The translations under genes and the position numbers were made by a program. A DNA stretch of 49,823 nt from positions 1 to 49,823 of the forward strand of contig MEDY01000409.1 of NCBI GenBank assembly GCA_001724265.1, read 5' to 3'. Source of the DNA: Rhizaria sp. SCN 62-66 (Eukaryota). Positions 7,701 through 45,745 of this stretch are shown one piece after another. Within the stretch, counting starts at the first letter, position 1, and each line of letters opens with the position of its first letter. Under the pieces are notes generated by a model, which ran no database searches, was not told the origin of the DNA, and saw only the letters and a program-made list of their open reading frames with translations.

Positions 7701-10700
7701 ATCGGTGTCAGCTGCTCGTACATCCGCACCGTACCCGCCAAGACGGGCTCTGTCGACACGCGCAAGTCAAGCTGCGTATCAGACGGATCAGGTTCGTTGG
7801 ACCCCAAGTCGCTCATGGATGCGCCTGGTTGAAGTCGCGGAAAAGGAGACGGTTCGACAACGCGGCGAAGCACCGCAAGCCACACGGTGCGGTGTAGAAA
7901 CACGACTGCAGAGCCCGTAGTAGCGCTGTCGGAGTCAGCCACATAGAAGTGTTGTCGGAGCAGCGGGATCACCACTTCGCGGAGCAGAAACGTTTGAAGC
8001 AGACACAGTATCTGTTGTGAGGCACGAGCTAGGCCTGACCACTTCTCATTGCCCTTCTTTGGCGCATTCTTACCTGCGTCTGGCCTGATACAACCAGCAG
8101 ACACCATTTTGCGCGCATCGCCACGAGCAACAGCTTTGCACGCGCCGTGGACCCTGGCCCTCTGAGCTGCAGACAGCCAGGAGACGTCCTGAATGGGGAT
8201 GCCGGCAACCAAGTCCGTCGCCGTGACCGACTCAAAGCGCCCGCGCAGCGCGGCCCACACAAGCCGGCCCTGGGCCGCCGCAGCGGCGCGGTGCGAGCCC
8301 CAGAAGGCGACGCCAAACACTTCGTCCAGCGCGGCGCTGACGAAGGCGGCCACGGCGGCGCGCGGGGTCGCCAGGGACAGCAGCGAGTGCAACACAGCCG
8401 TGTCAGTTTTCTCTCCGAGAGAGTTCTTAACGGCAAAGCACAGTAGATCAGACCGCGTGTGCTTGCGGAGGAGTTGCGCATAAGAGCAACTGCGATGGCG
8501 CTCTAGAGATGCAGCAAGGCGTGATTGCAATGCCTTTAGCGGTGGTGGGATGCGCACACATACGCGCGGCAAGAGCGGCGTCTGAGCAGGCTTTATAGCG
8601 GCAGCAGTCGCTGCTGTGGAAGACTCTGACACTGACGGCATGATCTTTGTGGAGTTGACAAGCACTGTGTATGGCGTTTTGTGCGCTGAAGGGTCAGGTT
8701 GCTTCGGCACCTCAAGTGGTGAAACTCGTCGCCCTGCGTTCGGCTGCTTCGGGCGGACCTGCAAAGAAAATGCAATGGCGAGCACCCCGCACGCCGCGCG
8801 GCGCGCCCAACTCGCGGTGGGCGTGCGGAGGGAAGCGTGTCCCACACTGGCGGCGTTCGCATCGTTGCTATCGGACATGGGCTAATGAACAGACTTCCTC
8901 CACGCTTTGGCCGCCGAGATTTCGGCTGCGGAGAGCGGGGGCAAGACTGCGCAGAGCCAGTGCGCGGCAGGATATCCATGTGCGCCAGGGGGACGTAGCG
9001 GTGCGTCACCTTGCCCATCAAGCCGCGCAAGCGTTGCAGCGCGCGAAGAGATGCGGCCAGCCATGTCGCGCGCGGTGCGCACAAGCGGCGTGACGCGGCT
9101 GTAGAAGAGAGCCTTGCGCGAGATAAACGTTCGACGTGTGCGCACAATGCCTGCGCTCGCCGCTGTGCTTTGTGTGCGAGTCGGCACAAACGAGAGGCGA
9201 CCAAGGGGGCCGAGACAAACGCGAAACCCAGCAGCAGGTGAACACAGTGCAAACGGAAGCGTGTATGCAGCACGGCGCTTAGCAGCAGTCACCAGCTCGG
9301 ACATCGCTGTAGTAGCAAGTGCGCAGGTACGGGGAAGCGCAAGAGCGCGCATGCTAAAGGCGCAAGGTGAAGGTGCTGATGTGGATCCTATCGTCACAGA
9401 GGCAATAGTTGCGGATGTGCTTGTCGATGACGCCACTGGTGATACTAGAGACGACGACGATGACGACGACGACGATGACGCTGATGCAGCTTCCATGAAA
9501 ATGCGGGTGGGGGCCTTGTACTCATAGTGCGAGGCAAGAAAAGCAAGCCAGCTCGCAACGGCGCGCGCACTGGCTGCGACTTCACTGTCGCTCACGCTCA
9601 TGTTGTCTGCACCGACAGCGATCACAGCCTTGTTTTTGATCTTCGCCTTTGCCCTGGCTGCAGCGGTATTCGCCGCGCGGGCGCGGGCCTCAAAGGCGGC
9701 AAGAGCAGCGGCACGCGCACTGGCTACAGCAGGCGCGGGCGCGGGCAGCCGCGGCGCAGGCTTCCGTGTGACAAACGACAGCGGCGGACCACACACCTGC
9801 AGATAGATCAGCCGGTCCTGGCGCAGCGCGGGGACGCCCGACAGCTGCACAGGCCGCGCAAGCGCGAAGAGCGTGGTGCGCAGCAGCAGCGCGGCGACGA
9901 TGTCCGCACCGACGCGCGCCAGCAGCAAACACCAGGGTGAGCCACACTGCGCACGCCAGGAGTCGCTGAGCGTGGCCGCGCAGCCGGAGCGCGGGCACCA
10001 CAGCGCGCGCACCGCGGGGGCGCTCAGCGGCGGCGGTGCGCCCGCAAGCAGCTTCGCCTGAGACACCGCTGCGGCCGCGAGCGCGCCTCCACACAGGACA
10101 GAGGGCGGCAGGGACGCGGTCGCGAGCGCGGAGTCGGCGTCGGCGGCAGCAGCGACGGTCGCCTCCTCCGCCGCCGCCGCGGACGCGGCGGGTGCAGCTG
10201 CTGCAAAGAGCGTGGCGGCGGTCGAGTGGGTCGAGACCGTCGCGGGGTCAGTGGTGGCGCTGGCCTCGTCGAGCACCGGCAGTCGCAGCGCGCCGATGGC
10301 CCCACTGGCCCGCGCGCCGTCGGCGGCGATCGTGACGGCCAGCACCTGCGCCATGCTGGGCAGCTGCCGCTCGGCGCCCGCAGCGCGACCGGGGCCAACG
10401 TTGCAGCGCGCACCAACGCCAGTGTAAGTAGCGCCAGTGTAGGTAGCGCCGTTGTCAGTGCCAGTGTAAGCGCCAGCGTCGGGGCGGGGCCCAGAGGCGG
10501 CAGCAGCGCCGGCAGCCATCGCAACGGCGCCCGGCGCGGCCCCGGTCCCGGGCGCTGCGGCTGCGCTGGGCTTGGGGAGCGAGCCGGGCACAACGGCGAT
10601 GGGCAGGTTGCGCACGCAGGGCCAGTCGCGGGCGGCGGCGGCGGCGCGCTCTTGGTCGGCCGCGCGCTCGAGCAGCGCTAGCGTGGTCCCGGCACCGATT

Positions 10701-11236
10701 AGTGCCTCCAGCGACGCAGGCAGCAGCGGCAGCAATGGCGGCGGCGGCGGCGCGGTGGTCGGCACCTACGCTGTGATTGAGGCGGCGTCCTCTGCGGCGG
10801 CAGCGGCTGCCGCAGCGGCGGCTGAGAGCTCTGCTGCAGCGCGTGCGGCGACGGCGACCTCGACGGCGGTGGCTACGCGCGGCGGGAGATCTTCGTCGGC
10901 GAGGAAGGTGGCGGAGCACGGCGGACAGAACGGGTGCAGGTAGTCGTGGCCGAGGCGGCGCCAGTCGAGCGCGCCGCTTCCGGCGCAAATGCGCGTGTCT
11001 TCGCACACGAGCGTGGTGCGCAGCAGTGCGCGGTACGACGCGGGGTCGTCGGGCCGCAGCAGATCGCGCGGCGACAGCGCCAGACCGCACCCGTTCAATC
11101 CGGGCGCAGCGCTGGATGCGGTTAAAAACACGTACAGTGACGGGTACGCGCGACTAAAACACTTCAAGAATGCCTTGGTCTTCTGCGAGAGGGGCAGCGG
11201 ACTCCCCAGCTCTTGGAGCAATGACCTCGGGGGCAT
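4748..11236 (-). CDS. TERT: Telomerase reverse transcriptase; exons 11236-7406 and 7264-4748, two in-frame TAGs (10766-10768, 8882-8884), about 2115 aa
   Basis: TERT motifs occur in the expected order across four ORF pieces: N-terminal LLRPDDPASYRALL; GQ/TEN WCLLLARVGADIVAALL...YLQVCGPPL; CP-like CSYAQLLRKH; QFP-like VAAFVSAALDEVFGVAFWGS; T motif LLRQHFYVADS...FLHRTVW; motifs 1/2 rebuilt by splicing (NLALR|PRPSSLRPIVNM); A AADVERCFDSLP; B' GVPQGSVISTLLACLYMG; C MRQVDDYLV; E WVPWNSL. Stop is TAA. Confidence 0.93.
7265..7405 (-). other. Spliceosomal intron in TERT (141 bp)
   Basis: GTATGC donor at 7405, AT-rich body with a pyrimidine tract, CCACAG acceptor ending at 7265. Removal joins RT motif 1 to motif 2 in frame. 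Confidence 0.85.
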
Positions 11237-11579: not shown

Positions 11580-12645
11580 ATGGAGCCTCCCCATACTCCA
11601 GAGAAGGGCGCGCGGCCCTCCCCAGCTGATGCATCTTCTGCTTCTGGCGCTATGAGTGGCGCCAACATGTGCCCATTGACCCCTGATGGTGCGCTGCGCT
11701 CGTCATGTCATGCTGCGCAGATGCTGACCCCGGTGTAGCAGATGCTACGCACGAGGGCGCCGACCGGGCTGGAGCCGTTGCTCGAGGTCCGCGAGAAGAA
11801 CATCGTCTACTCTCGCCGGGTCAATGAGCTTCACTCGGACATGTACGTTGCGGCAATTCCTCTTCTATCTCTTCATCACTCTTATACCTCTCTGCTATCA
11901 ACCTCATCGCGCTTGCTTTCAGTATCTTCTTGTCCCTCTCATCTTCCCTTCTTCATGTTCACCTCGCACACATTGGCATTGCCATTTTTGCCCACGCGCA
12001 CTACCTGCGCCGCGCAGCATGACGAGCATGCACTCCGCGCGCGAGGCGCTATCGTTATTTTCCGCGACCTCTGAGGCGGAGCTCGTGGCCGTGCTGGCCC
12101 GGCTACAAGCGCAGACACCGCGCGTGCAGCGCCTGCAGGCCGCGCTGCAGCGCGTCTTCCAGCGCCTCCGCGCTATGCGCGCGCGCCTGCTCGCTGCGGG
12201 TGTGGACGTGCCGGGCGAGGAGGACCCGCTGCTGGCGCTGGAGCGCGCCGCCACGGAGGAGCTCGAGCGCCGCAAGGAGGCGCGCTGGCAGGAGCGCCTC
12301 GTGCGCCAGAAGGCGGAGCATGAGCGCCGCGCTGCGCTTGACGGCGCCGCCGCGCTTGAAGGCGCTGCTACGCTCGAAGGCGGTGCTGCAATTGACAGTG
12401 CTGACACCGCGAACGCTGGTGATGACGCTGCAACTGCAGGTGGTGACGGTGCTGCACAGGCCGCTGACGCAAAGGGCGGCACAGCAGTCAAGGGCGGTGA
12501 TGCAAAAGGCGAAAAGCTGAGACCGGTCGCTGAGACCGACGAACGCGCTGGGAAGATGGGCGATAAGGGTGATACAGCGGCAGAGTCGAGTGCTGAAGCT
12601 CTTACGAGCACGGGCGACGATGTGGATGGGAAGCCAGAACGCTGA
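11580..12645 (+). CDS. KXD1/BORCS4-like coiled-coil protein; exons 11580-11842 and 12018-12645, in-frame TAG at 11736-11738 if ATG 11580 is the start
   Basis: The spliced product HSDIMTSMHSAREALSLFSATSEAELVAVLARLQAQTPRVQRLQAALQRVFQRLRAMRARL resembles the KXD1 core (...FNNLS...HT...L..IF.RIR.LK.KL). Intron has a GTACGT donor and CGCAG acceptor. Start is uncertain (11580, 11652 or 11742). Stop is TGA. Confidence 0.55.
11843..12017 (+). other. Spliceosomal intron (175 bp)
   Basis: GTACGT donor, pyrimidine-rich body, CAG acceptor. Removal joins two GC-rich coding segments in frame (AT|C = Ile). Confidence 0.75.
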
Positions 12646-13364: not shown

Positions 13365-14414
13365 TCAGTCCTCCGCGCCCTCGCCGTTCTCATCAGCGCC
13401 GCCACCGTCATCATCCCCGTTAGAGTAGTTATCCCCCTTTGTTTCCGCATCAGCCGCGGCCCCTGTCTCGGCCGCATTTCCCGCGGGCGCCGCCGCAGGT
13501 GGAGCCCCACCGTCTCCGCCCTCGTCCTCGCCGTCATTGGCACCAGCGCCCGCAGCACCGGCGTGACCAGGGTCAGCGTCAGCGTCGGCGGCGGCATTGT
13601 CGTTAGCAGATGCACCGCCGTTGCTGGCGGCGGCAGTGCTTGCGCTGACAGAGGCGGAAGCTGTGCTAGAAGCGGTGGCACGCTTTTGTTCAAGCTGCTC
13701 GCGGCGCTGCTGCTGCTGATGGCTCTGTTGTTTCTTGTCCGCGCGCGGCGGCGGCGCCCAGACAGTCGCAGGCACTTTCTCACGCTTGTGGTGCGCGTTA
13801 GGCACGGCTAGTGCGGCCCAGCGTACCGCCTCGGCCGCAGACGGCGGGTCCGCGTCGCGCGCAGTGAACCGCTGGCCGGGCACGGGGCCGTTGCCATAGA
13901 CGGGCTTCTCGGCGGCCGTCACGCGCTCGCGGCGGCGGTGCGGCGGCGGCGCGGCGAGGCGTTCGATGCGAGCCAGAGCTTCCCCAGTCAGCGGCGGCGG
14001 AGGCGCGGGCGCGGGCGCGGGGTCGGCGTCGCGGCGCGCGAAGTGGCTGCGCGGCGCGGGTGGCGCGTGGCGCGGCTCGGCAAGCTTGGTCAGGCGCGCC
14101 AGGTTCGCGGGCGGCGCGCTGGGCACGTGCGCGCGCTCGCGTGTGTAACGCGCCCACGTGCACGCTACCTGGGGGTTCGGGTGTACGTACGAGAAGCGGT
14201 CCAGCGCCTTCGGGTCACCAGTGCCCACCAGCGCCAGGCGTCGGCGGCGCTCCTCCGCCGCGTCATGCGGCTGCTGCTGAGAACCCGCGTCGCCGTCGCC
14301 GTTGTCGGGGTGCGTCTGGGCATAGTTCGCGTGGGCGTTGTTGTCGCGCTGCTGGTTGAGGCCGGAGTCGTGAGGCGTGTCGTTGTCATGATCGGCAGTC
14401 TCGTCGTAGTCCAT
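13365..14414 (-). CDS. Hypothetical 349-aa hydrophilic protein with three R-x-x-x-L-A-x-P repeats (possibly microtubule or cilium associated)
   Basis: ATG-started ORF spanning a GC-rich block between AT-rich spacers. Repeats RLTKLAEPR, RIERLAAPP and RWAALAVPN. Stop is TGA. Confidence 0.65.
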   Translation of the reverse strand: MDYDETADHDNDTPHDSGLNQQRDNNAHANYAQTHPDNGDGDAGSQQQPHDAAEERRRRLALVGTGDPKALDRFSYVHPNPQVACTWARYTRERAHVPSAPPANLARLTKLAEPRHAPPAPRSHFARRDADPAPAPAPPPPLTGEALARIERLAAPPPHRRRERVTAAEKPVYGNGPVPGQRFTARDADPPSAAEAVRWAALAVPNAHHKREKVPATVWAPPPRADKKQQSHQQQQRREQLEQKRATASSTASASVSASTAAASNGGASANDNAAADADADPGHAGAAGAGANDGEDEGGDGGAPPAAAPAGNAAETGAAADAETKGDNYSNGDDDGGGADENGEGAED

Positions 14415-14888
14415 GTGGCAAGTGCAATAGACGCGCGCGCAGTTTTTGTTAATGTGCAGACAAGAAAGTGAGAAGGAAACGCGTATGGCGGCCGCAGAGG
14501 AGTGGGTCGTTACTTGTTCAAGTAAGGCGTTCTGACAAAAGATTTCACAAGCCCACAGAAATCAAATGAAGAGTATGAATAATACAATTAACAGATAATA
14601 TGTACACCGCAGTCTAAATTGCGAACATGTTTCTTACAGTCGAAATGACGATGAAAAGTGCTCAATAGCTCTTGGTTTCATTCTCGACCACATATCCACC
14701 ATGCGCTGTGTCCTGCTTCGCTCAGACTTCAAAGCTTTCGAGCTGCGTTGCGGAAAACATTTATCACGCCTTGTTCACTCTGTGTAACTGACTGATAGCA
14801 CGAAATCCCAACTTTATTCTTGATATATTAGTTGTTGCTTTTATTAACTCACTCACAACAACGTCTTATTTAATCTCTGTATTTGCAG

Positions 14889-15613
14889 ATGGCCGACCAC
14901 TTCGCCAAGTTTGCCGCAATCTCTGCTCCGAGCAGGGGAAAGCGCGCCAACGACGGCAAGACCGACGACGACGGCATTTTCGACAAGAACTCGAAGCGTG
15001 CACGCAAGATTCAGGAGAAGCGCCTTGCACGCGCGGCTGCGGCTGAGGAGGAGGCGCGCAAGTACGAGAACGAGGAGGAGGACGAGGACGAAGAGGAGGA
15101 GGACGAGGTGCCGCTGCCCGAGGTGGACCCCGAGGAGCACTCGAACCCTCTGCTCGAGGTGCACCGCCTCTGGACCGAGTCCGCGCCTAAGGACATGGCG
15201 CGCGTGTTTGACCCGCGTCTGTCAACGGCGCGCCGCATCGAACTGCTGGGACTGCTGCCGACGCTGGCGCAGCGCAAGTACGCCTGGGCCATTCCCGACG
15301 CGCGCGCACTGGGACTGCTTTACACGCACGGCCCCATTGTTGAGGTTGCCGCGGGCAAGGGTTACTGGGGCTACGCGCTGCAGCGCTTCGCCGTCGAGGC
15401 CAAGCAGGCAGGCATCGGACACTGGAAGCCCGACGACCTGTACAAGGGTTTCGACGCCGCGCCCTACATCGTAGAGGGCGAGAACCTCGCTGAGCGCAAC
15501 AAGCGCGCCTTCGAGCACGAGCTGCGCCGCCTGGGGCTTGACCCTGAGGTTGAGGCGCGCCGCCTTGCCGCCATGGCCGACGGCAACGGCTCCGATGACG
15601 GCGAGGAAGGCGA

Positions 15614-15644
<31 letters not shown>

Positions 15645-17231
15645 ACCGCGTCCCAGACCGGCCCGCAGCACCCCAGTCAGCTCAAGGAGGGCGAGGTATT
15701 TGACTACCGCAAGTGGCGCAACAAGAAGCGCGGCGGGCGCAAGCGTCGCCAGCGCGAGCAGCGCGAGCAAGCGCGGCAGCGCGCGCTGGCCAAGGCGAGC
15801 GCGGCGGCGTCGTTCCAGGAGGACCGCGAGTGCCCGCCGTGGCTGCGCGTGAACCGCGCTGGTCCCGACGTTGCGGCCGAGTTCCCCGAGCACACGCTTT
15901 TTTTGTGCTACCCCGACGAGGGCGAGGCCGGCTACGTCCCCGCGGGCGGCGAGGAGGGCGAGGAAGACGACGAGGACGGCGCTTCTGGCGCTGGTGATGA
16001 CGACTCAAGCGCGGCGGCGGCAGCGGGCTACCGCGGCAAGTCCGTCGGGCTGCGCGCGCTGCTGGCGTACCGTGGCAACACTGTCATCGTTGTCGGCGAG
16101 TCGTTCGCGCAGACTGCGCAGGGCGGGAACCCGTGGGGCCGGTCTGCGATGAGCGAGTTCCAGCAAGAGCTCGCGTCGCAGTTCCACTGTGTGGTCCAGG
16201 TGCCGCTGCCCACGTGGCCCGGCACCGTCGACACGCTGTCGGTGTGGCGCCGCACGACGCTGTGCAGCGTCGTCGACTCGGTCGAGGCCGAGGAGGCGAT
16301 GCGCGTGGCAGCAGAGGAGCGCCGTCGCCGCGCCGCCAAGAAGCGCCGCGCACGCGCCGCCAAGAAGGCTGCCAAGGCGCTTGCACGCGACAACAGCGAC
16401 GACGAGGATGGCGCAGGCGCGGGCACCAAGGGCAAGCGCAAGGGCGGCAAGGGCGACGACAGCGACGACAGCGACAGCGACGAGGAGGATGACGAGGACG
16501 ACGAGGACGAGAGCGACGAAGACGACACGATGAAGTTCAATTTCATCCCTGCCCCCGAACAGATTCCGCTGCTGCGCGCGGCGCCCGTTGCGGCGCACTG
16601 GGCCGACGTGCCGCTCGGCGCCAGCGGGCTTGAGGCCGTGCGCGCTGCCCTGCGCAACCCGATCGCGTATTCGTCCGGCGCCACGGTCGGCGGCCGCAAT
16701 GCTGGCAAGGCGCGCGAGCCCAAGGCGGCGGGCAAGGACGGCAAGGACAGAGCGGCGGGTAAGACGGCGGCGGCGGGCGGCGACGACGACGGCGATCTGT
16801 CTGAAAACGACGACTTCGGGCTGGGCGTGGGCGATGCCGTGGCCGTGGCTGCCGCTAAGACGGGGCTCAAGACGGGCGTGCCCGTGGTGAGTCAGAAGAC
16901 GGCCAAGACGCGCGTCGTCATGAAGGCCAAGTCGGAAGAGGACGCAGAGGCCGAGTTCGCGCGCGCTGCCGCTGCGGCCGCCGCCAAGAAGGCTGATGCC
17001 GCCGACAAGAGCAAGGACAAGAAGAAGGACAAGAAGAAGGCCGATGGGGCTGAGACTGTGGAGCCTGTGGTGCGCCTGGCGGCCGTGCCCACTGTGGTCA
17101 GCGGCGATAAAGATGGCAAGAAGAAGAAGGAGACGCTTAAGGACCTCGGCGCTGAGTCGCTGCGCCTTATTATGGACGATGACGCGCCCAAGAAGTCCAA
17201 GAAGGAGAAGAAGGCTAAGAAGGACGAGTAA
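14889..17231 (+). CDS. Uncharacterised class I SAM-dependent methyltransferase-like protein with long acidic and Lys-rich low-complexity regions (about 780 aa)
   Basis: YAWAIP...IVEVAAGKGYW (SAM-binding motif I-like), LFLCYP, YRGNTVIVVGE and VPLPTWPGTVDTLSVWRR blocks. Strong codon bias. Stop is TAA. Confidence 0.7.
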
Positions 17232-17766: not shown

Positions 17767-20700
17767 TCATGAGCGCTCGGCAAAGTCGTCCTCGGCAATC
17801 TCCTCGAGCTCGGACATCATGTTGAGCTCCTCCTCTCCTAGCAAGGCGAGCTGCTGCTCAGCATGCTCAGCGTCGATGGCCTCGACCTTCGTGTCACCAC
17901 GGAGCGTGGCGCGCATGGACGCGATGCGTGCGGCCGAGGCGGCGGCACTGACCATCTGCGTCTCGGGCAGCACGGTCGAGGCCATGCCGTCGAGCAGGTC
18001 GCCCGAGGAGCGCAGGAGCTGGCGCTCGGTGAGGCCGAGGGAAGTAAGCGTGTCCTTGCGGCGGTAGATGTTGGCGCGCGACATCGTGGGGGGCTCGATG
18101 GTGACCACGGACGCGTCCTCGGCGTCGTCGCCGAAGACACGGTCGATGTTTTCCTCGCCGTTGTAGCCCGTGTCCAGACGGAAGTAGCGGCCGTGGAAGG
18201 GGTCCACAGCGAGGCGGTCAAGCGCGACGTCGAAGCGGTCCAGCAGCGACTGCGTGCTCGCGTCGGCGGGGAAGTACTTGTACTCGTGGTCTAGCGCTTC
18301 GAGCTCGGCCATCTTGCTCGTCACCTCGGACAGCGTGGTGGCATTGAGGACGGCCGACACGCGCTGCGCGAGCGTGCGCGGCAGCTCGACGAGCTCGTGG
18401 TTGACGAGCTTCTCGATGTCGCGCGGCGACGCGGCGGCGATGAACTTCGTCGAGGCGATGATGGTGTCGCTAAGAAGGTCGTCGTCGAGCGGCATCGTCA
18501 TGTCCGACAGCGACGCGCCCGCGGGCACGGGCTCCGTCGCCACGCCGTTGGGCGGCGTCGTCTTGGGCGCGGCGCGGAGGACGTTAATGAGACGGCCCGA
18601 GAAGAGCGTGACGAGGCGCTCAACGCGCTCGTTGATGGCCGACTCGGCGACGCCCTCGTTGACGTGGACTTCGATGTTGTAGCCGTAGTCAGCCAGGACG
18701 TCGCGGTCCGCCTCGGGGCCCATCGGGTCGTGCTTGGACACCGTCTTGAAGCCACGCTGTCCCACGGGGCGGGACTCTTCGTCGGACGACACTTCGGCCA
18801 GCGGACGCGAGTGCGTCTTGTGCGCGCCAGAGATGGTGCTCTGCACCGTGAGCCACTGGCGCAGCGCGTCGTGGTCGTCGGGCGTCATCGACGACAGCAC
18901 GTCGTCCTCGGCCGCCGCAGCGGCGCTGTCAGACGCGGGGTTCGAGAGGCGCTGCGCCTGCAGCACCTGCTCACCCTCACTGACGATGGCACCACGGAGG
19001 ATCTCGAGGTTGGACACGGGGCGAGTGGAGATGTCGACGGCGCGCTCGAAGGCGTCGGTGGCGGCCAGCTTCGTCGCAGTCTCGCGGCCCGCGGCGGACA
19101 TGACGTCGAGGAACTGGGTGAAGGGCGGGTAGAAGCGCATCGACTCGGGCACCTGCTTGGCGTCGAAGATCTTGTCCATGGTGGACGCGAACTCGGCCTT
19201 CTTCTCGAAGTACGGCTGCAGCTGCGTGTACGCGGGGGTCACCAGCAGGTCGCGGTTGCGCACCACATCCTGGATCGCTTCAGAGAAAGCCGTGGCGGCG
19301 TCTTTCTCCAGGTCGCGCATCTCGGCCGCCGTCGGCGCGGGGGGATTCTTGAAGAACGGGTTCATCATAATCTGGAAGTGCGCACCACGGGCGAGAGCGA
19401 GCTCACGGAACGAGCGCTGCATGCGCATCGCCTCCATGAAGGCGCGGACACCGTTCCAGATGTTGTTGGCACCGATACGGCGCACGGTGGCGTCCTCGAA
19501 GCCCACCGCCTCGAGCAGAGTGTAGTACGCAGGCGAGGCGTGGAGGCCGAAACCACGGCCCTGGGGCTTGACGAGCACGCGCGTGCACTTCCACTTGGCC
19601 ATGACGTTCTGGAACGGGGTGCGGTGCTCGTGCATCGGGACGAAGAGCACGTTACGACGGCACTTGTAGATGGCGCGGCGCGTGGCCATAGCAGCGTTGG
19701 GACCCTTGCCACGGCCGAAGGTGATGACACCATTTTTGTTGCCCATGATGACAAGCGAGCAGTGCGACATGACACGGCCCGTGGACACGGTGCAGCGCAC
19801 AATCTGGTCGTACATTGCGTCGGTGAAGCGCATCATGCCAGCGAACTTGGTCCAGAACTCGGCGCGGCGCTGTTGCGCGGTGAGGAAGACGCGCATCTGC
19901 TCAGCGTTCTGGGCGTCGGGAGCGTTGTCCGACGTCGTCTGGGTCACCGCGACGGGGTCGTTGGGGTACAGCGTCTGCGACGCGTCAAACGCCTCGTACT
20001 TCTTCATCTCGCGGTCAAAGGCGTCGCGCAGGCGCGCGACCTTGCTGACCTCCTCGTTCGAGTCGGAAGACTTGAAGAAGCCGTCAACGGCCGTGTCGGT
20101 GGGTTGCTCGAAAGGCATAAACGTCTGCAGACGGGGGTGCACGTTGTTGGCGAAGAAGTAGTGGTCGGCCTTCTCCATGAACTTGCTGAAGCGTTCAAGG
20201 TCGATGTCCTTGAACCTGTTGGTGGTGTGAAGAAGGGAGATGCGAAAAGAGAGCGGTGCCCAGTGTGTGAGGGCGGGCGAAGAAAGAGGGTGGGAGTATA
20301 AAGGAAAAGTAGAAATGGCAAGGTAAGGTGTGAGAGAATAGGGATGGGATTTGGGCACAGTACTGGCAATAAGATGAAATATACGAACAAATAGCTTAAT
20401 GAATTAAACACAAGGGGAACAAAGCAAGGAAGGAGTGAAATGAACGTACCGGGTGGGCAGGGTAGCCTCACCGCTCTCATCACGGAAATACTGGCGATTC
20501 CAGAGGTTGGGGGTCGTGGGGCGCTCGGGGTTGTCAAGAACCTCAAGGTTGATGAAGTCGTTAAAGCCCGTGATCTGCTTGTAGGCGTTGTAGTTCGGGT
20601 CGTCGTCGTAGAGCTGCGCGACAGGGCTGGGACCGGGGGTGCCGGGAGCAGTGAGCGGCTTGGCCTTGTAGTTCTCAGGAACCTTCTGAAGCCACTCGAC

Positions 20701-20925
20701 GTCCAGCGGAGTGCGCATAAAGGCCGCCTGGTTGTTCTGGCGAGCGGAGCCCGCCTCATCCTCACCGGCGATGTCGGTCTCGTTGGCAGCGGCCGCGAAC
20801 GGGCGGACCGGCACAGCGGTCACAGTCGACTGGGTCGCGAGGGCACTCCGCAGGGGCACCAGAGCCGCATGACGTGCCACCCCGGCCAAAGCCTTCTGGC
20901 GAACACGTTGGCTAACCGAAAACAT
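17767..20925 (-). CDS. MRPS5: Mitochondrial ribosomal protein uS5m; exons 20925-20450 and 20215-17767, about 974 aa
   Basis: S5 domains: GRVMSHCSLVIMGNKNGVITFGRGKG, AIYKCRRN, AKWKCTRVLVKPQGRGFGL, LLEAVGFEDATVRRIGANNIWNGVRAF. Arg/Ala/Ser-rich N-terminus with no acidic residues, as in a mitochondrial presequence. Stop is TGA. Confidence 0.85.
20216..20449 (-). other. Spliceosomal intron (234 bp)
   Basis: GTACGT donor at 20449, pyrimidine-rich body, AACAG acceptor ending at 20216. CG|G = Arg keeps the frame. Confidence 0.85.
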
Positions 20926-21649
20926 GCCAAGCGTTTTTGTGTTGCGATTCACAAGCCTTCACAACGACGAATAATAATCTCCCAACCGCGCTCCCGGCCC
21001 CGCCCACCGACCCAGCCCCAGCCCAGCCGCTGCACAAAAACGACCGTGGGCAGTGTCCCGCTCTGCCTAAGGGCCTCTCCCCCTTACACTTGGGGCGATG
21101 CATATTGAGACACCTCTCGGGTTACTGACTTACTCCTTTAAAAGATATTCTCTTATTTTTAATCTATAGTAGGGCTTTTGTATACTAATCAAGAATTTAT
21201 TATCTCTTTTAATCGTTTTATGGTCTTATATCGACAGAATCCTGGAGAGATAGAGAGCCGTTGGGGGAAGATGTTACTATATTTTCTGCAATATCAAGCC
21301 CAATATAACTGTCAATCGAGATTATTACATGGTATCGTATACGTGTCTAGTTATGATATCGTGTGGTCAAAGTAGATCTTTATTTAATGCTTGCTATTGC
21401 TGACAAATTTACTGAGATAAGCAATCTTTGTTATGTTATGAACTAGTGGTCGCAACCCTACTTGCAGCGTTTAGCCATACAAGAAGATGCTGGATCAAAA
21501 TCTAAACAACGGTACCTGAGTCATAAATGAATGAGGGTTTTATTAAGTATCAGTGATGTTCTATACAGTCAAACAGTCTGCCGTGGCAGCCCCAAAGAGG
21601 CGCTCTGACCAGCGTCATGTTACGATTTTGCACAGCTAGCATGCGGCAT

Positions 21650-24600
21650 TTACGGGCGAGCCAGTTGCGCCTGCTGCTGCTGTGTCTGAAAAAGCGCGAG
21701 TGAGGTAAGGCGGACGCCGTCTTGGCCGATCTGCGTGCGCAGACACTCGAAACCCAGCCCCATCATCGCGCTCTCAAGCGCATGCACCGGGTCGCCGCTG
21801 CCGCTCACCAGCGCGCAGTCAGCGCTCGAGCCAGCGCCCACAGTCGCAGGCACTGTCACAGTCGCGGCCGCAGTCCCAGGCACCGCCACGTCAGCAGCGC
21901 CGCTACAAGCGGAGACCACTTGCGCGCTGCGACCACCCGCCGCAGCAGTCGCGTTCGCGGGCACGGTCACGGCTTCGTGGTCGTGGCAGTCATCGCCGCC
22001 ACAGTCGCTGTTGCTGGTGCTGTGGCTTGGACTGGGCGTGGCTGCGGGCGCGCCGGCGAGGCGGCCCGCAGCGGGGTGGTGCGGCGGCAGCGGCGCAGAC
22101 GCGGGCGCGATGAGAGACGGGGCGCCCATGAGCGCCACAGCAGCCCGCGTCGCACTCCCGCTGCCTGTGCCGGGCGCCCCGGCGGCCGCCGAGGCCGAGG
22201 CCGACGAGGCTGAGGTGGAGAGAGCGGGCAGCGAGGCCGTGGAAGGCAGCGACGGCAGCGTCAGCGCGATGGTGCTCAGCGCGCTCCGCTTCATCGGAGG
22301 CTTCGCAGTCGCACTCGCGCTGTCGCCCGCAGCCGGTGCAGCACCAGTTGAATCACGACCACTGGCAACATGACTCGCGGTTGTGGCAGCACCAGCGGAC
22401 ACCGTCGACGCGGACGCCGCTGAAACGGGGGTCGAGTCGAGCACGGGCACGACCTGCCCTGCGGCCGAAGCGAGCGCGCTCTTCTTGTTGACGAGCGGGG
22501 GCAGTAGCGTGATTGCGCAGCCGCCGCCGCCGGCGCCGGTGAGTTTGGTGGGCATGCTCATGGCCTCCGCGCAACGCGCGACGCGGTCCAGCGCGGGGTG
22601 CCCCACGCCCAGCAGCGTCAGCAGCTCGTGGTTCTTGCTCAGCAGCGGGCCTACGCACTTAAAGAAGCCCTGCGCCAGCGCGACCAGCGGTTGGCCGTCA
22701 GCATCAACGACCGGCATCGCAGTGCCCTCGACATCAGCGTCGACATCAGCGTCGGCGTCGGAGTTGTCGCTGTCGCCGTCGAACGTGTCAAAGTCGAAAT
22801 CATTATCGTCATCATCGTCATCGGTATTATCACTTGCGTTGTTTTTGGCCTCCGCGGCCTCTGCGGCGGCGAGCTGCTTGCGCGCGCGCACGATGGCGCC
22901 GTCTGCGTCCCCGGCGACGCGCTGGAAGGCGGCGGCAAACTCGCGGTCCGCGTCGGGCGATGACGGCACCGCGGCTGCGGCGGCGTCCGAGTCGAGTCCG
23001 GCCACCCCTGCGAGCCTGCAGTAGGCCTTGATGGCCGAGACGACGCGCGTGGCGATGCCGTCAATGGCCATGAAGACGGGCGTCGCCACCTCGGGCATCG
23101 CGGCCTTAAGCGCGGCCACGCGCGCCACGAGTTGCCGCGTGTCCTTGGGCACGCGCGTATTCGTGATCACGAGTTCCACAGATGGGGGGATGCAGCCGGA
23201 CGGTAGGAAATGCATCACAGGCTGCACTGGTGCGACGACCGACATGGCGGGAGAGGGCGGTGCGGCGGCCATGGTCGGAGTAGCCGTCGCTGGCACAGGC
23301 GCGGAGCCTAAGACAGTTGTGGAGGACACAGGGGCTGGTAAAGAGTCAGGCGCGGACACAGAAGGCTTCTTAGATGTGGAACAAGCGGGTTTGGCCTCGG
23401 CGTCGGCACGCGAGGCTGCGCGGGAGAGCTCTTTCTGCTCCAGTGGCTCCATCACAGGCGCTGCCGTCGCCGCCACAGGTGCCGTCGCAGTCAGAGGCGC
23501 CATCGCAGTCAGAGTCGCAGTCGCCGGCGCCCCGGCAGGGACAGCAACAGCGGGATCGTTCACAGAAGACGTTACAGGGGCCGTCGCAGTGGCAGAGGGG
23601 GGCTTGGCGTCGCTAGCGTGTGCGACGGCGACGACGGGGCCAAACAGGCGCGCAGCTGCGTCCGCCGGGTGCTCCATGCGGCGGCGGAAGACGACGACGC
23701 CGCCGTAGACGCAGACGGTGTTGTCGAGTCCCGAGCACACGCCGTGCACGAGGCGCTCGCCCTCGTACGCCCACGCGTTGATCAGCGCGCGGTCCAGCGC
23801 CACGCCAATGTCACCACTGCAGTCACCGCCATCACCGTCGCGATGAGGGCGACCACCGCCGCTGTGACCAACACCGGCATTGTGAGCATCGTTAGTGCTC
23901 GACATCAACGCTGACGCAGACGCGGACGCTGACGCAAACGCAAAGGGCGTGGATGCGGACGTGTTCGCTGGGGGAAATGGGTACGCTGTGGAGGCGACTG
24001 CAGACTCGATCGAAGGACCAAAGGAGCATGACGAAGCGGGCGAGTGCGAGTACGCGTGCGAAAGGGATGAGGGCACGGAGAGCGAACCCGCGGAGGCAGC
24101 GCCGGCACCGAGACGGCAGAGAGCGAAGAAGCCCGTTGCGAGCGCGGAGCAGAACGACGCCGAGGAGCCCAGACCGGAGCCGATGGGGAGGTCCGAGGTG
24201 ATGGAGACTGACACGGCGTGGGCGGCGCGCGACATGAGCAGGCAGAACATGAGGAAGATCTGCGCAGGCGCGGCGTCGTGCAGCCGGCCGCCGTTGGCGC
24301 GGATCTGCTCCATGCGCGCAGCCACTTGCGCGGGTGGCGCGGCGGGCAGCGGCGTCAGCGTCAACGCACTAGGGACCGCATCGAACGTGTCACGCACGTA
24401 GTCCACGGCCGCCGCAGTCTCCGCGGGCGAGGAGAAAACCGAGTCAATGTCCCAGGCGGAAGGGAAGAGCCCGTCGAGCTGCAGACGCGCGTGCTCCAAG
24501 TCAACGAAGCGCCAGGTGCGGGAGATCTGCAGCTCCTTGTCGCTGTGGGAAAACGAAACCGTCGTCGGGTCGGTACTGGGGGCAAAGCACGCAAATGTGC

Positions 24601-24706
24601 GGCGGTCGACAACAGTAGCAATAGCGTGAGAGCCGTGCACGACGCTATGCTCGCCGGATAGGATGATCTTGCCGGGCGCAGAGGCCACGAAAGGCTAGAA
24701 GTACAT
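21650..24706 (-). CDS. MVK: Mevalonate kinase with large Ala-rich insertions; in-frame TAG at codon 4 (24695-24697), about 1018 aa
   Basis: GHMP kinase motifs SAPGKIILSGEHSVVHG, LPIGSGLGSSA, GERLVHGVCSGLDN, ITNT, NHELLTLLGVGH and KLTGAGGGGC. The nearest upstream ATG gives ATG TAC TTC TAG CCT TTC GTG GCC TCT GCG CCC GGC AAG. Stop is TAA. Confidence 0.9.
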
Positions 24707-36552: not shown

Positions 36553-39500
36553 ATGGGCCATCTCTTCCGCAGTGAGGAGATGTGCTACGTCCAAATTAAA
36601 TGTGTCGACGACGCCAAAGAGCTTACGACCATTGAGCTTGGCGCGTTTGCCAAGTTCCAACCAACAGACGTACGTCGCTCTCCCTTCTTCATATCCCCTC
36701 GTCCTCTCCAGACTCGTTTCATCTCTCACTCATCATTCTGTCGTCATCCATGCTCACTGCTCCGGCATCATCGTTTCGCCTTGTGTTTTGCATGTCGCCG
36801 TACAGCTATCGACCGACGCCGGTCCCAACGAGGGTCCGCGCTACATCGGCCTCCGCCGCCACGCACAGGAAGTCTCGGCGGTAGAGAACCGTCTGTCGAA
36901 TCTCGTTGCGCTGTGCGAGCGGTACAAGGTCGCAATCCCGCGCTCCACGCGCTCCGGCTTTGACCGCCTGCTGCGCGCCAACTTTACGCAGATGCTGCCC
37001 GTACTCGCGCAGGCCGAGGCCGAGCTGGGCGGCCACCGCACGACGCTGACGTCGCTGCGGCGCACGTTGCTGACCGCGTCCGAAGACAAAGCAGTGCTCA
37101 CGCTCGCGCGCACGTTTCACGACGAGTCCGGCGGCGACCGCGCGCTGATGGCGCGTCTGGCCACCTCCTCCGAGGCTGGACTGCGGCGGCGGCGCGGCAC
37201 GGGCGCTGCGGCGCGCGAGATCGAGATGGCGCCCGTGACTCCGGTCGGCAGCGGCTTTGAGTCGGACCTCGACCCTGAGCTTGGCGCGCTTTCACGGCTC
37301 AACGCCGTGGCGTGCGGGGTGGTCGACGCCGTGCAGACGCCCCTGCTGGAGCGCGTTGTGCAGCGGCTGTCGCGCGGGACCACGTTCGCGCGGTTTATCG
37401 ACATCCCGGAGCCTTTTTACGATGCCGAGGCTGGTCGCTTCGTGCGCAAGGCCTTCTTCTACCTCGTCCTGCTCGGCCGCGGGCTCGAAACCAAGGTCGC
37501 GCGCCTCTGCTCCTCGCTTGGCGGCCGCCTGGTCCCGCTGCCCGACTCCTCCCAGGGGTACGACGACCTGCTCGAGGCCGCCGAGACGGCCGCTGCCGAC
37601 ACGCGCACGGCGATTCAAGCCACCGAGCGCATGATCGTGCAAATCCTCACCGATCTCGCAGGCGCCAACGCCGACGGGCCCGGCGCCGCTGCGCTCCCCG
37701 GCGCGACACCTTCCTCTGCCGCCGCGGGCGCCAGCAGCAGCAGCAGTAGCAGTCTCGCGGGACTGTCCCTCAGCGGTGGCGCCAACGCGGGCGGCGCGGG
37801 CGCCAACGGCGCGTCGCCGCTGCGCATGCTCGAGGCCGCCGTCACACGCGAGCGGCACGTCGTCGAGGCGCTAAGCCGCGCGGCGTTCACGGAGCGCTAC
37901 GTCATCTTCGAGGGTTGGATCCCGCGGTTCGCGCGGCGCGAGTTAGTCCAGCGCATGCGGCGCATCCAGCGGCACGACTCATCACTATCTGCGCCCGCGG
38001 TTGTGTTTATCCCGGGCGCCGTGGCGCGCGCCGCACAGCGCGGGCCGCCACCGACGCTTATCCGCACCGACTCCTTCTCGGGGTTGTTCCAGTCGATCGT
38101 GGACACGTACGGCGTGCCGCGGTACCGCGAAGTGAACCCCGGTCTGTTCACCATCGTGACGTTCCCGTTCTTGTTCGCGGTCATGTTCGGCGACATCGGC
38201 CACGGCGCCGCGCTGCTTGTCGTGGGGCTCTACTTTGTGCTCACGCGCGCGACGTGGGAGCGCCGTATTCGTCTGCACCGCGCTGGGGAGCTCGCCGCGG
38301 GGCTGTTTGCCGCGCGCTGGATGCTGCTGCTGATGGGCATTTTCTCGCTCTATATGGGGCTTATTTACAACGATCTCTTCTCACTGCCCGTGAGTCTTTT
38401 CGGCAGCGCCAACTACGTCAAGCCCGTCGTCCCCGTGGGCATGCGTGCCGGTAACCACAAGCTGTGGAACGGACAGGTGTACCCGTTTGGCATGGATCCC
38501 GGATGGGGTCACGCCAAGAACGAGCTCCAGTACCGCAACTCGTTCAAGATGAAGATGGCCGTTGTGTTGGGTGTGCTGCACATGACGCTCGGTATCATCC
38601 TCTCGGTGTTTAACCACGTGCACTTCGGCGACACGATCTCGCTGGTGACCGAGTTTATTCCGCGCCTTCTCTTTCTGACCTGCACGTTTGGCTACATGAT
38701 CTTCATGATCTTTTACAAGTGGTGCGTCAATTGGTTCGCCATCTCAAAGCAGCCGCCGAATCTGATCCAGAGCATGATCTCCATGTTCCTCAAGCTCGGC
38801 GACCCCGGCGCAGACCCGCTCTACGCGGGCCAGCTCTCGGCACAGCGCGTCCTGCTCTTCATCTCAGTCGCCACGCTGCCAGTCATGTTCCTCGCCAAGC
38901 CGCTGCTGCTCTACCGCAAGCAGCAGGCGCGCCACGCCCGCTACCAGCGTCTCAACGACGACCACGGTGGTGGCGACGGCGGCCGCAGCAGCAGCGGCGG
39001 GCCGATCGCGAGCGACGGAATGCCACAGGGGCTTGATGGCGCGGCCTCCCCCGCGGTCTCGGTCGGCAACGACGTCGTTGGCAGCGGCAACGGCAGCGGC
39101 GGCAGCAACGGCGAGAGCGGCAGCGACCACCACAGCCTGTCCGATCTTATGATCCACCAGGCGATCCACACCATTGAGTTTGTGCTCGGCGCCGTCTCTA
39201 ACACGGCGTCGTATCTCCGTCTCTGGGCGCTCTCTTTGGCCCACGCGCAGCTGAGTTCGGTGTTTTGGGACAAGATCCTGATGGAGTACGGCATCAACAA
39301 GGGCCCGTTCTTTGCCTTTATCGCGTGGGCCGGCTGGGCGGGCGCCACGGGCGGCGTGCTCCTCGGTATGGACGCGCTCGAGTGCTTCCTCCACGCCCTG
39401 CGCCTGCACTGGGTCGAGTTCCAGAACAAGTTCTACTACGCAGACGGCCGCGCGTGGGCGCCCATGTCTCTCGCCGCCAGCGCCGTGTCTCTGGGCGACA

Positions 39501-42016: not shown

Positions 42017-42586
42017 GTCTTACTTCGGTCTTGATAGCGGGCAAGCGTTCGGATCGCGGCAGCATCAAACAAGGAAGGTATCAGAGGAGAAGAAAGAGTA
42101 GATGTGAATGGAAATTAAAAACTTAGAATTATGGGCCATGTGCAGTTACCACCATCACGCCTATAGCCGCATAAATCCTGACCGAGACCTCTATCATGAG
42201 AAAAGCGCTTGGGTGTGCGAGACAACCTCAACTACATCGAAGAGCGCGAAAATGAGATCAGAGAGGACCATCCGGATCAACTGCTGAAAATTTACAGTGT
42301 GCTCATATAAGATGCGCCATATTTAACCCTTAAAATTTTATCAGGGATTTAAACAACGTTATGTTCACCGAGGATGAGAACTGAGAACATTCGCGGCGGT
42401 CGAGCCGTTTGTTTCCACTCACTGCTGTGGACCCGGGCAGGTTCGCAAAAAAAGCTGGCGAGACGAAGAACAGACAGAGTTAACTAGAGCGGGCAAAAAC
42501 TACCTCTGAAACTTGGCTAATTCTCCGTCAACCGCTCTGCTGATCCTTCACAGTTCTTTTACAGACGGGTTTTACTGTGCCCGCAA

Positions 42587-45500
42587 ATGTTTCAAGTCAG
42601 TTCTTTAAACGTGGCCGTCCGCCGCGCTAGTGAGGGACTGACTCGGGGCTTGCTGGCTTCGACAGCTTCCTCTCACTCACTTCCCGCTGGCAGCGTGGTC
42701 TCTGCGACTTTTTCCCGCAACGGCCATCCTTGTCGCTATGCTTGGGCGCGCCCTTCTGCTGCCGCGCGCCCATCGACCTCGTCGGCGCGCCTCTTCAGCT
42801 CCAGCGCTCCCGCCACGCCGGATCCTTCGGCGCCTCCGTCGGCCGCGACCGCAGCCGCGACCGCAGTGGACGTATCCGAGCCCATCCTGCTCTACAACAG
42901 CCTCTCGGGCCGCCTTGAGCCCCTGCGGCGCACAGACTCGTCATTGACGGCCTCGGGCGCGCCGCGGCCCCTGCGCTGGTACCTGTGCGGCCCCACCGTG
43001 TACGACGCGGCGCATCTCGGCCACGCCCGCACGTACGTCAGCTTCGACCTGCTCCATCGTGCGCTCACAGACGTGCTTGGCGCGCCCGTAGACCTGGCCA
43101 TGGGCGTTACTGATATTGATGACAAAATCCTTGCCCGCGCGCGCACCGCCGGTGTCCCGTGGCGGCTGCTCGCGCGACATTTCGAGTACCAATTCCGCTC
43201 TGATCTGTTAACGCTCAATGTCCGGCCCCCAGCGGTATTCCTGCGCGTATCCTAGCACGTGCCCGACGTTGTGGCCTTTGTCGCCGCCATCGCCGCGCGC
43301 GGGCTTGCGTATGAGGCCGCCGACGGCGTGTATTTTGACACCACGGCCTTCCGCGCGCATGGTCACGCGTACGGCAAGCTTCGCCTCGCGCCAGAAGCCG
43401 TGGAGCGGCAATACGCAGCGTTCGCGGCCGCACGCGCGCGCGCGCGCGCCACGGCGGCGACCGCGGATGCGAGTGAGGTTGACGCGGCCGGACTGGTGTC
43501 GCTCGACGCTGAACTGGGCGTTTCAGGCGTTGACGTCGACACCGGTTCCGCCCGCGACACCAACACCAACGCAAACTCCGCGGGCACACGGGCACAGCAG
43601 GATTTGGCTGCGCTGGGCGGGATGGGCGGCTCGACCGGTCGATTTGTCTCCGCCTCGGCAGCCGCACGGTCGTTCAAGAGCGCAGAGGCCGACTTCGCTC
43701 TCTGGAAGAAAGTCACAGTCACCGACACCGGCGCAGCCACTTGCTCTGGCTCCGGCGCTAGTGCCAGTGCAGCAACTGATGCGGACGAGGCGTGGTGGGC
43801 GTCCCCGTGGGGACCCGGCCGCCCTGGCTGGCACATCGAATGCTCCGCGATGACGGCCGCGCTCTGGGGCCCGCGGCTTGACTTGCACGGCGGCGGCGTC
43901 GACCTCCGCTTCCCGCACCACTGCAACGAAATTGCGCAGGGCGAGGCGCGCTTTGGCTGGGCGCAGGTCCTCTCCGACGAGGCTGGCTGCGTTGCCGCCG
44001 CGAATGGCAGCGGCACTGGCGGCTGTGGCGACAGCCACGCCCGCGATGATGACGCGTGTGTCGTCGTGCGCCTTGACGATGGCTCGGACTCGGGCTCTGG
44101 CTCTGGCTCTGACCCGGGTACGCGCGTGCACTCGCGCCGCGGCGAGTGGTGCCCACAGTGGGCACACACCGGTCACTTGCATATCACAGGCCGCAAAATG
44201 TCTAAATCGCTTAAGAACTTCGTCACGGTCCGCGAGCTCCTCGCCGCGGGCACCTCTGCCGACGAGTTCCGCATGCTCTGCCTCCAGGCGCACTACCGCG
44301 CCGGGCTCGACTACGCGCCTGAGCGCCTCCGCGCCGCGCGCGCCGCCATCACCGCCGTCAGGGACTTCTGGGAACTCGTGGCGCGCACGGTTGCTGCGTC
44401 GCCGTCTGCCGTGCCGCAGGGCGCCGCGCCCCGCGCTGCCGCTGCCGCCTATGGCGCCGCGCTCACAGCTACTAATGCTAATACAACCGCTCGCTCTTCT
44501 GCCGAGCGCGTGTGGGACGCGCCGCTGCGGCCGCGGCCGGCGGACCTCGCGCTCGCCGCTGCAGTCTCGGCCTGTCGCGCTGACGTGCTCGCCGCGTGTC
44601 GCAACGACTTCGACGGGCCGCGCGTGCTCGCCGCGCTGCAGGATCTCTGCGCGGCCGGCCGCAGGCACGCGTTGGAGCCCGCGCCGGCGCCGCACCTGCT
44701 CCAGTTGGCGGCCGCTGAGACTGCGCGCGTGCTCCGCCTGCTGGGCTTCCGCTTTGCCGGCGCACCCGACGAGGCCGCCGCGTCCCCCTTTGCCGCCTCT
44801 GCCTCCGCTGCTGCTGCTGCTGGAGCGCTCGACGCTGACTCTAGCGCGGGCGCGGTGTGGCGTGCCGACGTGACCGCGGCTGACGTGGCGATGGCCCACC
44901 CAGACGCGGCACCCGCGGCGGTGCGCGAGGCGCTTTGGCCGCGGCTTGCAGGGCTCAAGGGTGCAGACGCCGCCGCAGCGCTCGCCGCCGCAGAGGTGGA
45001 GGCGCGCGCTGCTGCGGCCGCCACTGCTGGAAGTGGGAGCCCGACTGCAGCTGCGCAGTTGCGGTGGCCGGCGGAGGCGGTGGCGCCCGCGGCGGCCATC
45101 GCGGACGCGTTGGCATCCTTCCGTGGTCAAGTCCGCGCCGCTGCACTGCGAACTACGCAGCCGCAGTCGACACAGTCGCATCCTACACAGCTACAGTCTG
45201 AGTCTGATGCACAGTCGCAGTCAACGTCGGCGGCGGCGGCGTTGAAGCTGAGCGGCAAGAATGGCGCTGCAGCGCAGGCGGCCGCGGCGCTGGCGTCCGC
45301 CGAGGCCGCTGGCTCCGCGACGGCGGCCGTGCCTGTGGAGGTGCTGCGCGCTCTCTCCACTGGCGCGGCCGCGGGCGGGGCTCTGGCAGCGCGCGTACTT
45401 GCACTGTGCGACGAGGAACGCGACGTGACGCTGCCCGCGCTGGGGTTTGCGCTCAAGGACGTCGCCACCGCGAGCGACGTCGCGCAGCAACAACAGCTGC

Positions 45501-45745
45501 AGCAGCAGCAGCAGGGCGAGCATGAGAGTGCAAATAAAGGGTATTTCTTGCGGGCGCTGCATGCGGGCGAGGCGGCTGAGATGCAGCGCGCGCTGCTCGA
45601 GGCCGCACAGGCGCGCGTCGCCAAGGCTGGCGGCTCCGCCAAGCCTGCCGCGGGCGCCAAGGCCAGCAAGGTATTGGGGGCTGCGGCTGCGGCTGCGAGC
45701 GCGACGGCGAGTGCTGACAAGGACAAGAGCAAGGGCAAGAAGTGA
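42587..45745 (+). CDS. CARS2: Cysteinyl-tRNA synthetase, mitochondrial type, one in-frame TAG at 43253-43255, about 1052 aa
   Basis: [18 protein letters not shown] (HIGH) and TDIDDKI lie before the [42 protein letters not shown] and KMSKSLKN lie after it in the same frame. Arg/Ser-rich presequence-like N-terminus. Stop is TGA. Confidence 0.93.

Follow-up and report, generated by a model that had tools for sequence, protein, structure and literature searches.

Can a eukaryotic ribosome give UAG the meaning of an amino acid and still end genes at UAA and UGA? The question is raised by contig MEDY01000409.1 from bioreactor or wastewater metagenomes, whose whole 49.8 kb we call the window. On it, the gene for an organellar-type cysteinyl-tRNA synthetase (CysRS) is interrupted by an in-frame TAG, and the gene for the telomerase protein TERT by two more. 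An earlier note on this DNA had proposed that the TAG in CysRS stands for Glu or Gln. From the letters of the window, we favor a reading in which UAG is generally decoded as sense, the residue being Glu, and in which UAA and UGA still act as terminators; we put its probability at about 0.55. The interpretation of the earlier note is supported as the best reading, short of proof. The organism is sampled here through this one contig, and all code statistics given below are those of the window. Features are listed in Table 1.

Table 1. Coordinates of the features discussed
Feature	Position	Strand	Remarks
Contig under study	MEDY01000409.1, 49.8 kb		Eukaryotic; bioreactor/wastewater metagenomes
CysRS gene, organellar-type	42587-45745	+	No intron seen; Ala-rich insertions, long C-terminal extension; stop TGA
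In-frame TAG of CysRS	43253-43255	+	Codon 223, acidic column
TERT gene	4748-11236	-	Exon 1 11236-7406; exon 2 7264-4751; stop TAA 4750-4748
TERT intron	7405-7265, 141 nt	-	GTATGC...CAG
TERT TAG no. 1	10766-10768	-	Codon 157; Ala/Pro-rich stretch, unalignable to relatives
TERT TAG no. 2	8882-8884	-	Codon 785; telomerase RNA-binding domain starts 176 codons downstream
V-ATPase subunit a, first exon	36553-36669	+	Short, MGHLFRSEEM...KFQPTD
V-ATPase subunit a, probable intron	136 nt, ends 36805	+	GTACGT...CAG
Mitoribosomal S5 gene intron	20216-20449, ~234 nt	-	Donor GTACGT; boundaries read by eye
Open reading frame with coding-like codon usage, without Pfam family (1 of 4)	790-3132	+	
Same (2 of 4)	11728-12642	+	
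Same (3 of 4)	13368-14561	-	
Same (4 of 4)	14874-17228	+	

A TAG within the CysRS catalytic domain

Is the interrupted frame a CysRS gene? Its protein matched the PF01406 catalytic domain at 271.2 bits (cut-off 27; E 1.6e-80), in three stretches owing to insertions, and the CysRS structures 8qhp and 9yru in the PDB at E ~1e-66. The named relatives returned by the homologue search include mitochondrial CysRS. The earlier note had put the TAG inside the catalytic domain, between its HIGH- and KMSKS-type halves, and the alignment places it just so: codon 223 of the frame 42587-45745 falls between the segments HLGH and KMSKS, both of which align to the family. We take these segments to be the motifs that go by the names HIGH and KMSKS. 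The 22-residue peptide that had been quoted across the TAG is exactly what this frame yields. The frame holds 1 stop in 1,052 codons, while the other five frames hold 7 to 36. This is a single stop in a plainly coding frame and not a chance junction of two open reading frames (ORFs). At 1,052 amino acids (aa) the protein is larger than its relatives, which range from ~460 to 830 aa.

Does the gene show the damage expected of a dead copy? We aligned it to 119 homologues, which are the best 120 of 5,008 significant matches (8,000 scored) less the window's own fragment. Columns conserved at 90% or more were retained at 29 of 29 positions before the TAG and at 71 of 72 after it (100/101 overall), and a motif near the C-terminus, ~750 residues past the TAG, is shared with relatives. 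The CysRS gene is without sign of decay.

Two variants were seen in the gene, each on one contig at a depth below 5. One, A>G at 43126 (run X5), changes AAA to AAG and is synonymous; the other, A>C at 43679 (run X4), changes Ser to Arg within an insertion.

Is the TAG itself real? Sequences that lack it would speak against a sense codon, as the earlier note had pointed out. The TAG is covered with 0 differences by contigs of two further studies: X3 record 5 (42170-43783) and X4 record 14 (42849-43447). A JGI contig (L001, 1,614 nt) is identical to 42170-43783 and may be the same data as the X3 record; in a metagenome scan for the DNA of relatives, L001 alone was returned, and with it no orthologous codon from a relative. 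The fragments into which the standard code divides these genes, bounded by the TAGs, are themselves on record in JGI, Logan, and ENA: a 222-aa CysRS piece and four TERT pieces, each on six contigs. An 828-aa CysRS fragment is on record on three. More broadly, the stretch or part of it is present in 10 of the 12 metagenome runs listed, which come from six studies with run years 2015-2025. Contigs of X7, a polyA-RNA library that may contain DNA, flank the TAG with 0 differences (42642-42890, 43333-43653, 43812-44143, and 44821-45099). Because the same TAG occurs in contigs of other studies and bounds ORF pieces found on three to six contigs, the CysRS TAG is not a sequencing error. The TAGs of the window are real and fixed, and they lie in frame within coding sequence.

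Perhaps the TAG is a real base triplet that never reaches the ribosome, or one that the ribosome skips? Together with assembly or sequencing error, we considered a very short intron, RNA editing, and ribosomal hopping. This set of explanations is already largely refuted, and we hold it to be very improbable. What it has on its side are two GT...AG strings, of 9 nt (43247-43255) and 21 nt (43235-43255), that end exactly at the TAG. Against these stand the real introns of the window, which are few and short (136, 141, and 234 nt) yet far longer than either string, AT-rich, and bounded by GTAYG and CAG; the alignment, which is colinear across the site with the TAG filling one column; and the same base in independent assemblies. 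We know of no nuclear U-to-G editing. The statement of the earlier note that nothing near the TAG looks like an intron agrees with the local composition: GC within 150 nt on either side is 0.64, whereas two of the window's introns have 0.40 and 0.45.

The particular versions of such skipping were each rejected. With the 21 nt excised, the protein would lose VFLRVS and with it the invariant R and V; with the 9 nt excised, it would lose the S and the acidic column along with the invariant V. A split CysRS would have to restart at the next in-frame Met, ~120 codons downstream, and would lose part of the catalytic fold. Ribosomal hopping over the CysRS TAG was dismissed along with these micro-intron and split-protein readings.

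The residue at the CysRS column

Which residue would UAG insert? In the 119 homologues the column of the TAG holds Glu 108 times and Asp 11 times, and no other residue. At the flanking positions, R at -3 and V at -2 are invariant (119/119 each), -1 is S in 83 and T in 36, +1 is H in 79, Y in 33, F in 6, and N in 1, and 84 homologues have P at +3. In the four closest relatives the site is LRV[ST]E[HF]. The family pattern that the earlier note had given, with a single-residue slot that is normally Glu, agrees with what the homologues have. Of the two meanings that it had thought most likely, Glu fits best, and Gln occurs in 0 of 119 homologues; Trp and Leu, which it had judged poor fits, do not occur at the column either. 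Among solved structures, the residue is Asp in 8qhp, Glu in 9yru, and His in the E. coli enzyme (1li5).

Could UAG nevertheless mean Gln, or another residue such as Leu or Tyr? Known codes speak for it: Gln is the most frequent meaning of a reassigned UAG (PMC11687900), and the UAG-only codes described mean Gln or Leu (PMC5304391, PMC11687900). The His tolerated by E. coli at this column also leaves room for a residue that is not acidic. However, a Gln code would require a non-conservative replacement at a position that is invariantly acidic in the homologues, while the change would be silent if UAG meant Glu. We prefer Glu to Gln because Glu is silent here and because Gln, Leu, Tyr, and Trp alike are residues absent from the column in all 119 homologues. 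A meaning other than Glu strikes us as quite unlikely.

TERT, stop codon usage, and the competing explanations

Is CysRS the only gene that is interrupted in this way? The two further in-frame TAGs of the window lie in exon 1 of TERT. That gene matched the Telomerase_RBD family PF12009 at 60.1 bits (cut-off 25; E 3.2e-16), and RNA-binding domains of TERT in the PDB matched it at E 0.009-0.22. The RVT_1 match is weak, at 23.8 bits and below the cut-off of 29.6; the order expected of a telomerase, an RNA-binding domain followed by a reverse-transcriptase domain, is the order found. The 1,277 codons of the exon 1 frame include two stops, each of them TAG, as opposed to 18 to 31 stops in the other five frames. 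On either side of each TAG the frame running through it has the best codon score, with no frame switch. Local GC is 0.75 at TAG no. 1 and 0.63-0.66 at TAG no. 2; all three in-frame TAGs lie in surroundings of GC 0.63-0.76, unlike the spacers and introns of the window. Because of this composition, we do not regard TAG no. 2 as a gene boundary, despite an ATG 4 nt further on. The part upstream of the RNA-binding domain may be the TERT N-terminal domain, which it resembles in a motif; an insertion of ~320 aa lies within this presumed domain.

If UAG is a sense codon, how do genes end? Among 13 gene models the terminators are TAA in 8, TGA in 5, and TAG in none; for the 9 models with Pfam support the counts are 6, 3, and 0. 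If TAG normally ended 20% of genes, 0 TAG in 13 would have a probability of 0.055; for a share of 10% the value is 0.25, and for 30% it is 0.01. The sample is small. Within genes, no TAA or TGA stands in frame in 12,508 codons (12 gene models). TAA is favored at gene ends (8/13) although the genes have a GC of 0.6-0.75, and this preference in a GC-rich genome resembles that of ciliates with a reassigned UAG, in which, in the relevant excerpts of PMC11687900, UAA is the preferred stop.

We wondered if the TAGs might be read through at particular sites by a programmed signal. The three contexts differ (TAG CAC GTG, TAG GTG CCG, and TAG CCC ATG), with no motif shared downstream, and the 100 nt following each TAG fold no better than shuffled sequences (z of 0.21, 1.47, and 0.22). 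Site-specific programmed readthrough is not supported. General decoding is favored over a site-specific signal because the three sites have in common neither a downstream motif nor an unusual structure.

A different possibility is that the standard code applies and that the TAGs are fixed nonsense mutations, in young pseudogenes or dispensable copies of CysRS and TERT whose functions are supplied by other genes. GAG becomes TAG in one step, and of the nonsense codons that one step can produce here, TAG is the most frequent, at 64.5% of the target. Moreover, long ORFs stay open by chance in GC-rich DNA, and antisense ORFs of up to 697 aa are present in the window as such chance-open frames. What this explanation would have to accept is that two essential, single-copy-type genes out of 13 are both dead, with three nonsense codons between them and otherwise undamaged: CysRS retains nearly all of its highly conserved columns, and the TERT frame is without TAA, TGA, or frame switch. 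The TAGs are also identical in assemblies of three studies (2015-2025), and not one of the 13 genes ends in TAG. We consider nonsense mutation unlikely.

Might UAG instead be a leaky stop, with no dedicated tRNA? Near-cognate tRNAs would then insert a residue often enough for low-abundance proteins, and the organism would be in an ambiguous intermediate state. The avoidance of TAG at gene ends (0/13) also fits a leaky stop, and the genes with in-frame TAG are just two, both low-abundance housekeeping genes. The nucleotide that follows the stop adds a small hint: C is absent there from all 13 terminators, which have A, G, or T instead, but it follows 2 of the 3 in-frame TAGs, and C at position +4 makes a leaky stop context. 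The CysRS column is difficult for this explanation. Near-cognate tRNAs at UAG would insert Gln, Tyr, or Lys, and the column would then be filled by something that is neither Glu nor Asp, which is seen in none of the 119 homologues. The sites have no known readthrough motif and no downstream structure, and we know of no precedent for an aminoacyl-tRNA synthetase that is interrupted in its catalytic domain and made full length at a yield of a few per cent. A leaky stop seems to us improbable.

Several observations weigh against decoding as Glu, and some of them are points in favor of the two explanations just described. The first is rarity. In-frame TAG occurs 3 times in ~12,500 codons (0.24 per thousand), against 466 GAG, and the widespread sense use of UAG that established reassignments have (PMC11687900) was not found in the window; such rarity speaks for nonsense mutation and for a leaky stop alike. 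Nor is it an argument for a sense codon that all three in-frame stops are TAG. Given the share of TAG in the one-step nonsense target, three out of three has a probability of 0.27, and we rejected this argument. The change from GAG to TAG is equally the product of plain nonsense mutation. Only one of the three in-frame TAGs falls on an alignable column, so the identity of the amino acid rests on one column; there, an acidic residue is the rule in this branch yet not chemically obligatory, because the E. coli enzyme has His. A tRNA scan and an Rfam scan of the 49.8-kb window returned no tRNA gene and no Rfam match, and the gene for eRF1 does not lie in the window. Among the X7 contigs listed (longest pieces only), none spans 43253, which is uninformative either way.

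The TERT N-terminal part adds to these points. Its assignment is based on frame statistics and on weak similarity to residues 135-177 of human TERT (E 0.68, PDB). It had no Pfam match at E up to 10 and no usable Atlas match; phmmer against 1.84 billion representatives matched it only to the window's own two pieces, and a PDB search with TERT residues 1-120 gave nothing relevant.

How would decoding as Glu work? We infer from sequence that UAG is translated, which residue is inserted, and a mechanism involving a tRNA and eRF1. In this scheme, the cytoplasmic ribosome would read UAG as an amino acid, most probably glutamate, and terminate at UAA and UGA. The decoder would be a tRNA with anticodon CUA, presumably a single base removed from the tRNA-Glu(CUC) that reads GAG, and a probable weakening of UAG recognition by eRF1 would aid it. 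Panek et al. (2017, PMC5304391) have argued that no anticodon other than CUA would read UAG but not UAA. Once UAG meant Glu, changes from GAG to TAG would become near-neutral; a few would be fixed in low-abundance housekeeping genes, such as those for the organellar CysRS and telomerase, and TAG would be lost from gene ends. Because TAG is rare and confined to low-abundance proteins, a young or inefficient reassignment is suggested, and this grades into the leaky stop considered above. The reassignment may have been caught early, with sense UAG still rare and confined to low-abundance housekeeping genes.

Lineage, known codes, and the rest of the window

To what kind of organism does the window belong? 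In a quick tree of CysRS (28 of 121 sequences, picked as named or as top matches), the window's protein falls in a clade with 99% support together with P0003, P0004, P0005, and P0007; this clade adjoins stramenopile sequences, in a relation that the tree leaves unresolved. PRMT1 has metagenome relatives at 84, 77, and 74% identity, and the named relatives listed for it are at ~62-65% (Spongospora and Aphanomyces). The search with the V-ATPase protein, dominated by low-complexity words, gave two matches, the window's own protein and P0123 (62%). We tentatively propose, at somewhat less than even odds, a code with UAG as glutamate and both UAA and UGA as stops in an uncultured, GC-rich, non-ciliate lineage of wastewater protists.

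Has such a code been described? The comparisons that follow draw on excerpts of the cited papers. Codes in which only UAG is reassigned and UAA is the favored stop are already known (PMC5304391, PMC11687900). In Iotanema spirale, where UAG is Gln, and in exLh, a rhizarian where it is Leu, UAG is sense and UAA (dominant) and UGA are stops, outside the ciliates, as would be the case here; the predicted decoder is likewise a tRNA with anticodon CUA (PMC5304391). Here, in contrast to both, the meaning is most probably Glu, in-frame TAG is very rare, and the organism is GC-rich and known from metagenome contigs. Phyllopharyngean ciliates (UAG = Leu or Gln; McGowan et al. 2024, PMC11687900) also have UAG alone reassigned and UAA as preferred stop, and their codes likewise came to light by mining metagenome assemblies. 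They differ in the widespread sense use of UAG and in their identified suppressor tRNA(CUA) genes. The genome of the window is also not ciliate-like, with a GC of 0.6-0.7 and a CysRS that groups near stramenopiles.

Glu as the meaning of UAG has been described where UAA is reassigned too (PMC10553269, PMC11687900, and PMC12153298, in the parts that treat it). For Oligohymenophorea sp. PL0344 (McGowan et al. 2023, PMC10553269), UAG = Glu has been proposed with a meaning distinct from that of UAA, as we propose here; in that ciliate, however, UAA is Lys and UGA the sole stop, whereas in the window TAA ends genes and never occurs in frame. The codes by which peritrich ciliates and Blastocrithidia read UAR as Glu (PMC11687900, PMC12153298) share with the proposed code a stop of the UAR pair that is read as glutamate, but in them UAA is reassigned alongside UAG, and in Blastocrithidia UGA as well. 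In the window UAA and UGA are ordinary stops, and with TAA at 8 of 13 gene ends and 0 in frame, the joint reassignment that marks the UAR = Glu type is not what we found. In full-text searches of a limited literature collection, we found neither a code with UAG = Glu in which UAA and UGA both remain stops nor any variant nuclear code from a wastewater or stramenopile-like protist.

What would follow from decoding as Glu? Nuclear code changes outside the ciliates are few, and those that give UAG and UAA different meanings are rarer still. If true, the Glu variant with UAA and UGA as stops would be a new code table, and it would offer a further independent example of eRF1 and tRNA(CUA) separating UAG from UAA. 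Its very low codon usage would be a natural snapshot of a reassignment at its onset, relevant to the dispute between ambiguous-intermediate and codon-capture models. There is also a practical side: standard gene callers split this organism's genes at TAG (CysRS into 222 and 828 aa, TERT into four pieces), with the result that bins of this lineage would be mis-annotated and would score as fragmented.

The remainder of the window is gene-dense. A profile search supported nine genes with Pfam families: TERT, a mitochondrial-type ribosomal protein S5, a GHMP kinase, a GNL3/Grn1-like GTPase, THADA/Trm732, V-ATPase subunit a, PRP19, CysRS, and PRMT1. Four further ORFs are listed in Table 1, and one of them, 11728-12642, has only a marginal coding score. 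In the composition scan, GC is 0.6-0.75 in genes and 0.35-0.47 in 12 spacers and 2 introns. The introns of S5 and TERT are pyrimidine- and AT-rich, and their lengths are multiples of 3, so that the flanking exons look like adjacent ORFs in the same frame. The long ORF of V-ATPase subunit a has, by itself, no start codon ahead of the start of its Pfam match.

Several of the housekeeping proteins are greatly enlarged by Ala/Ser/Gly-rich low-complexity insertions and extensions (42587-45745 and, on the minus strand, 17770-20958, 21653-24694, and 7406-11236). Past its S5 domains, the S5-type ribosomal protein is extended at the C-terminus by ~540 residues, and the GHMP kinase is 1,014 aa long. The longest non-coding stretch of the contig is 47300-49823, where GC is 0.37-0.55 and the six frames hold no ORF longer than 143 aa.

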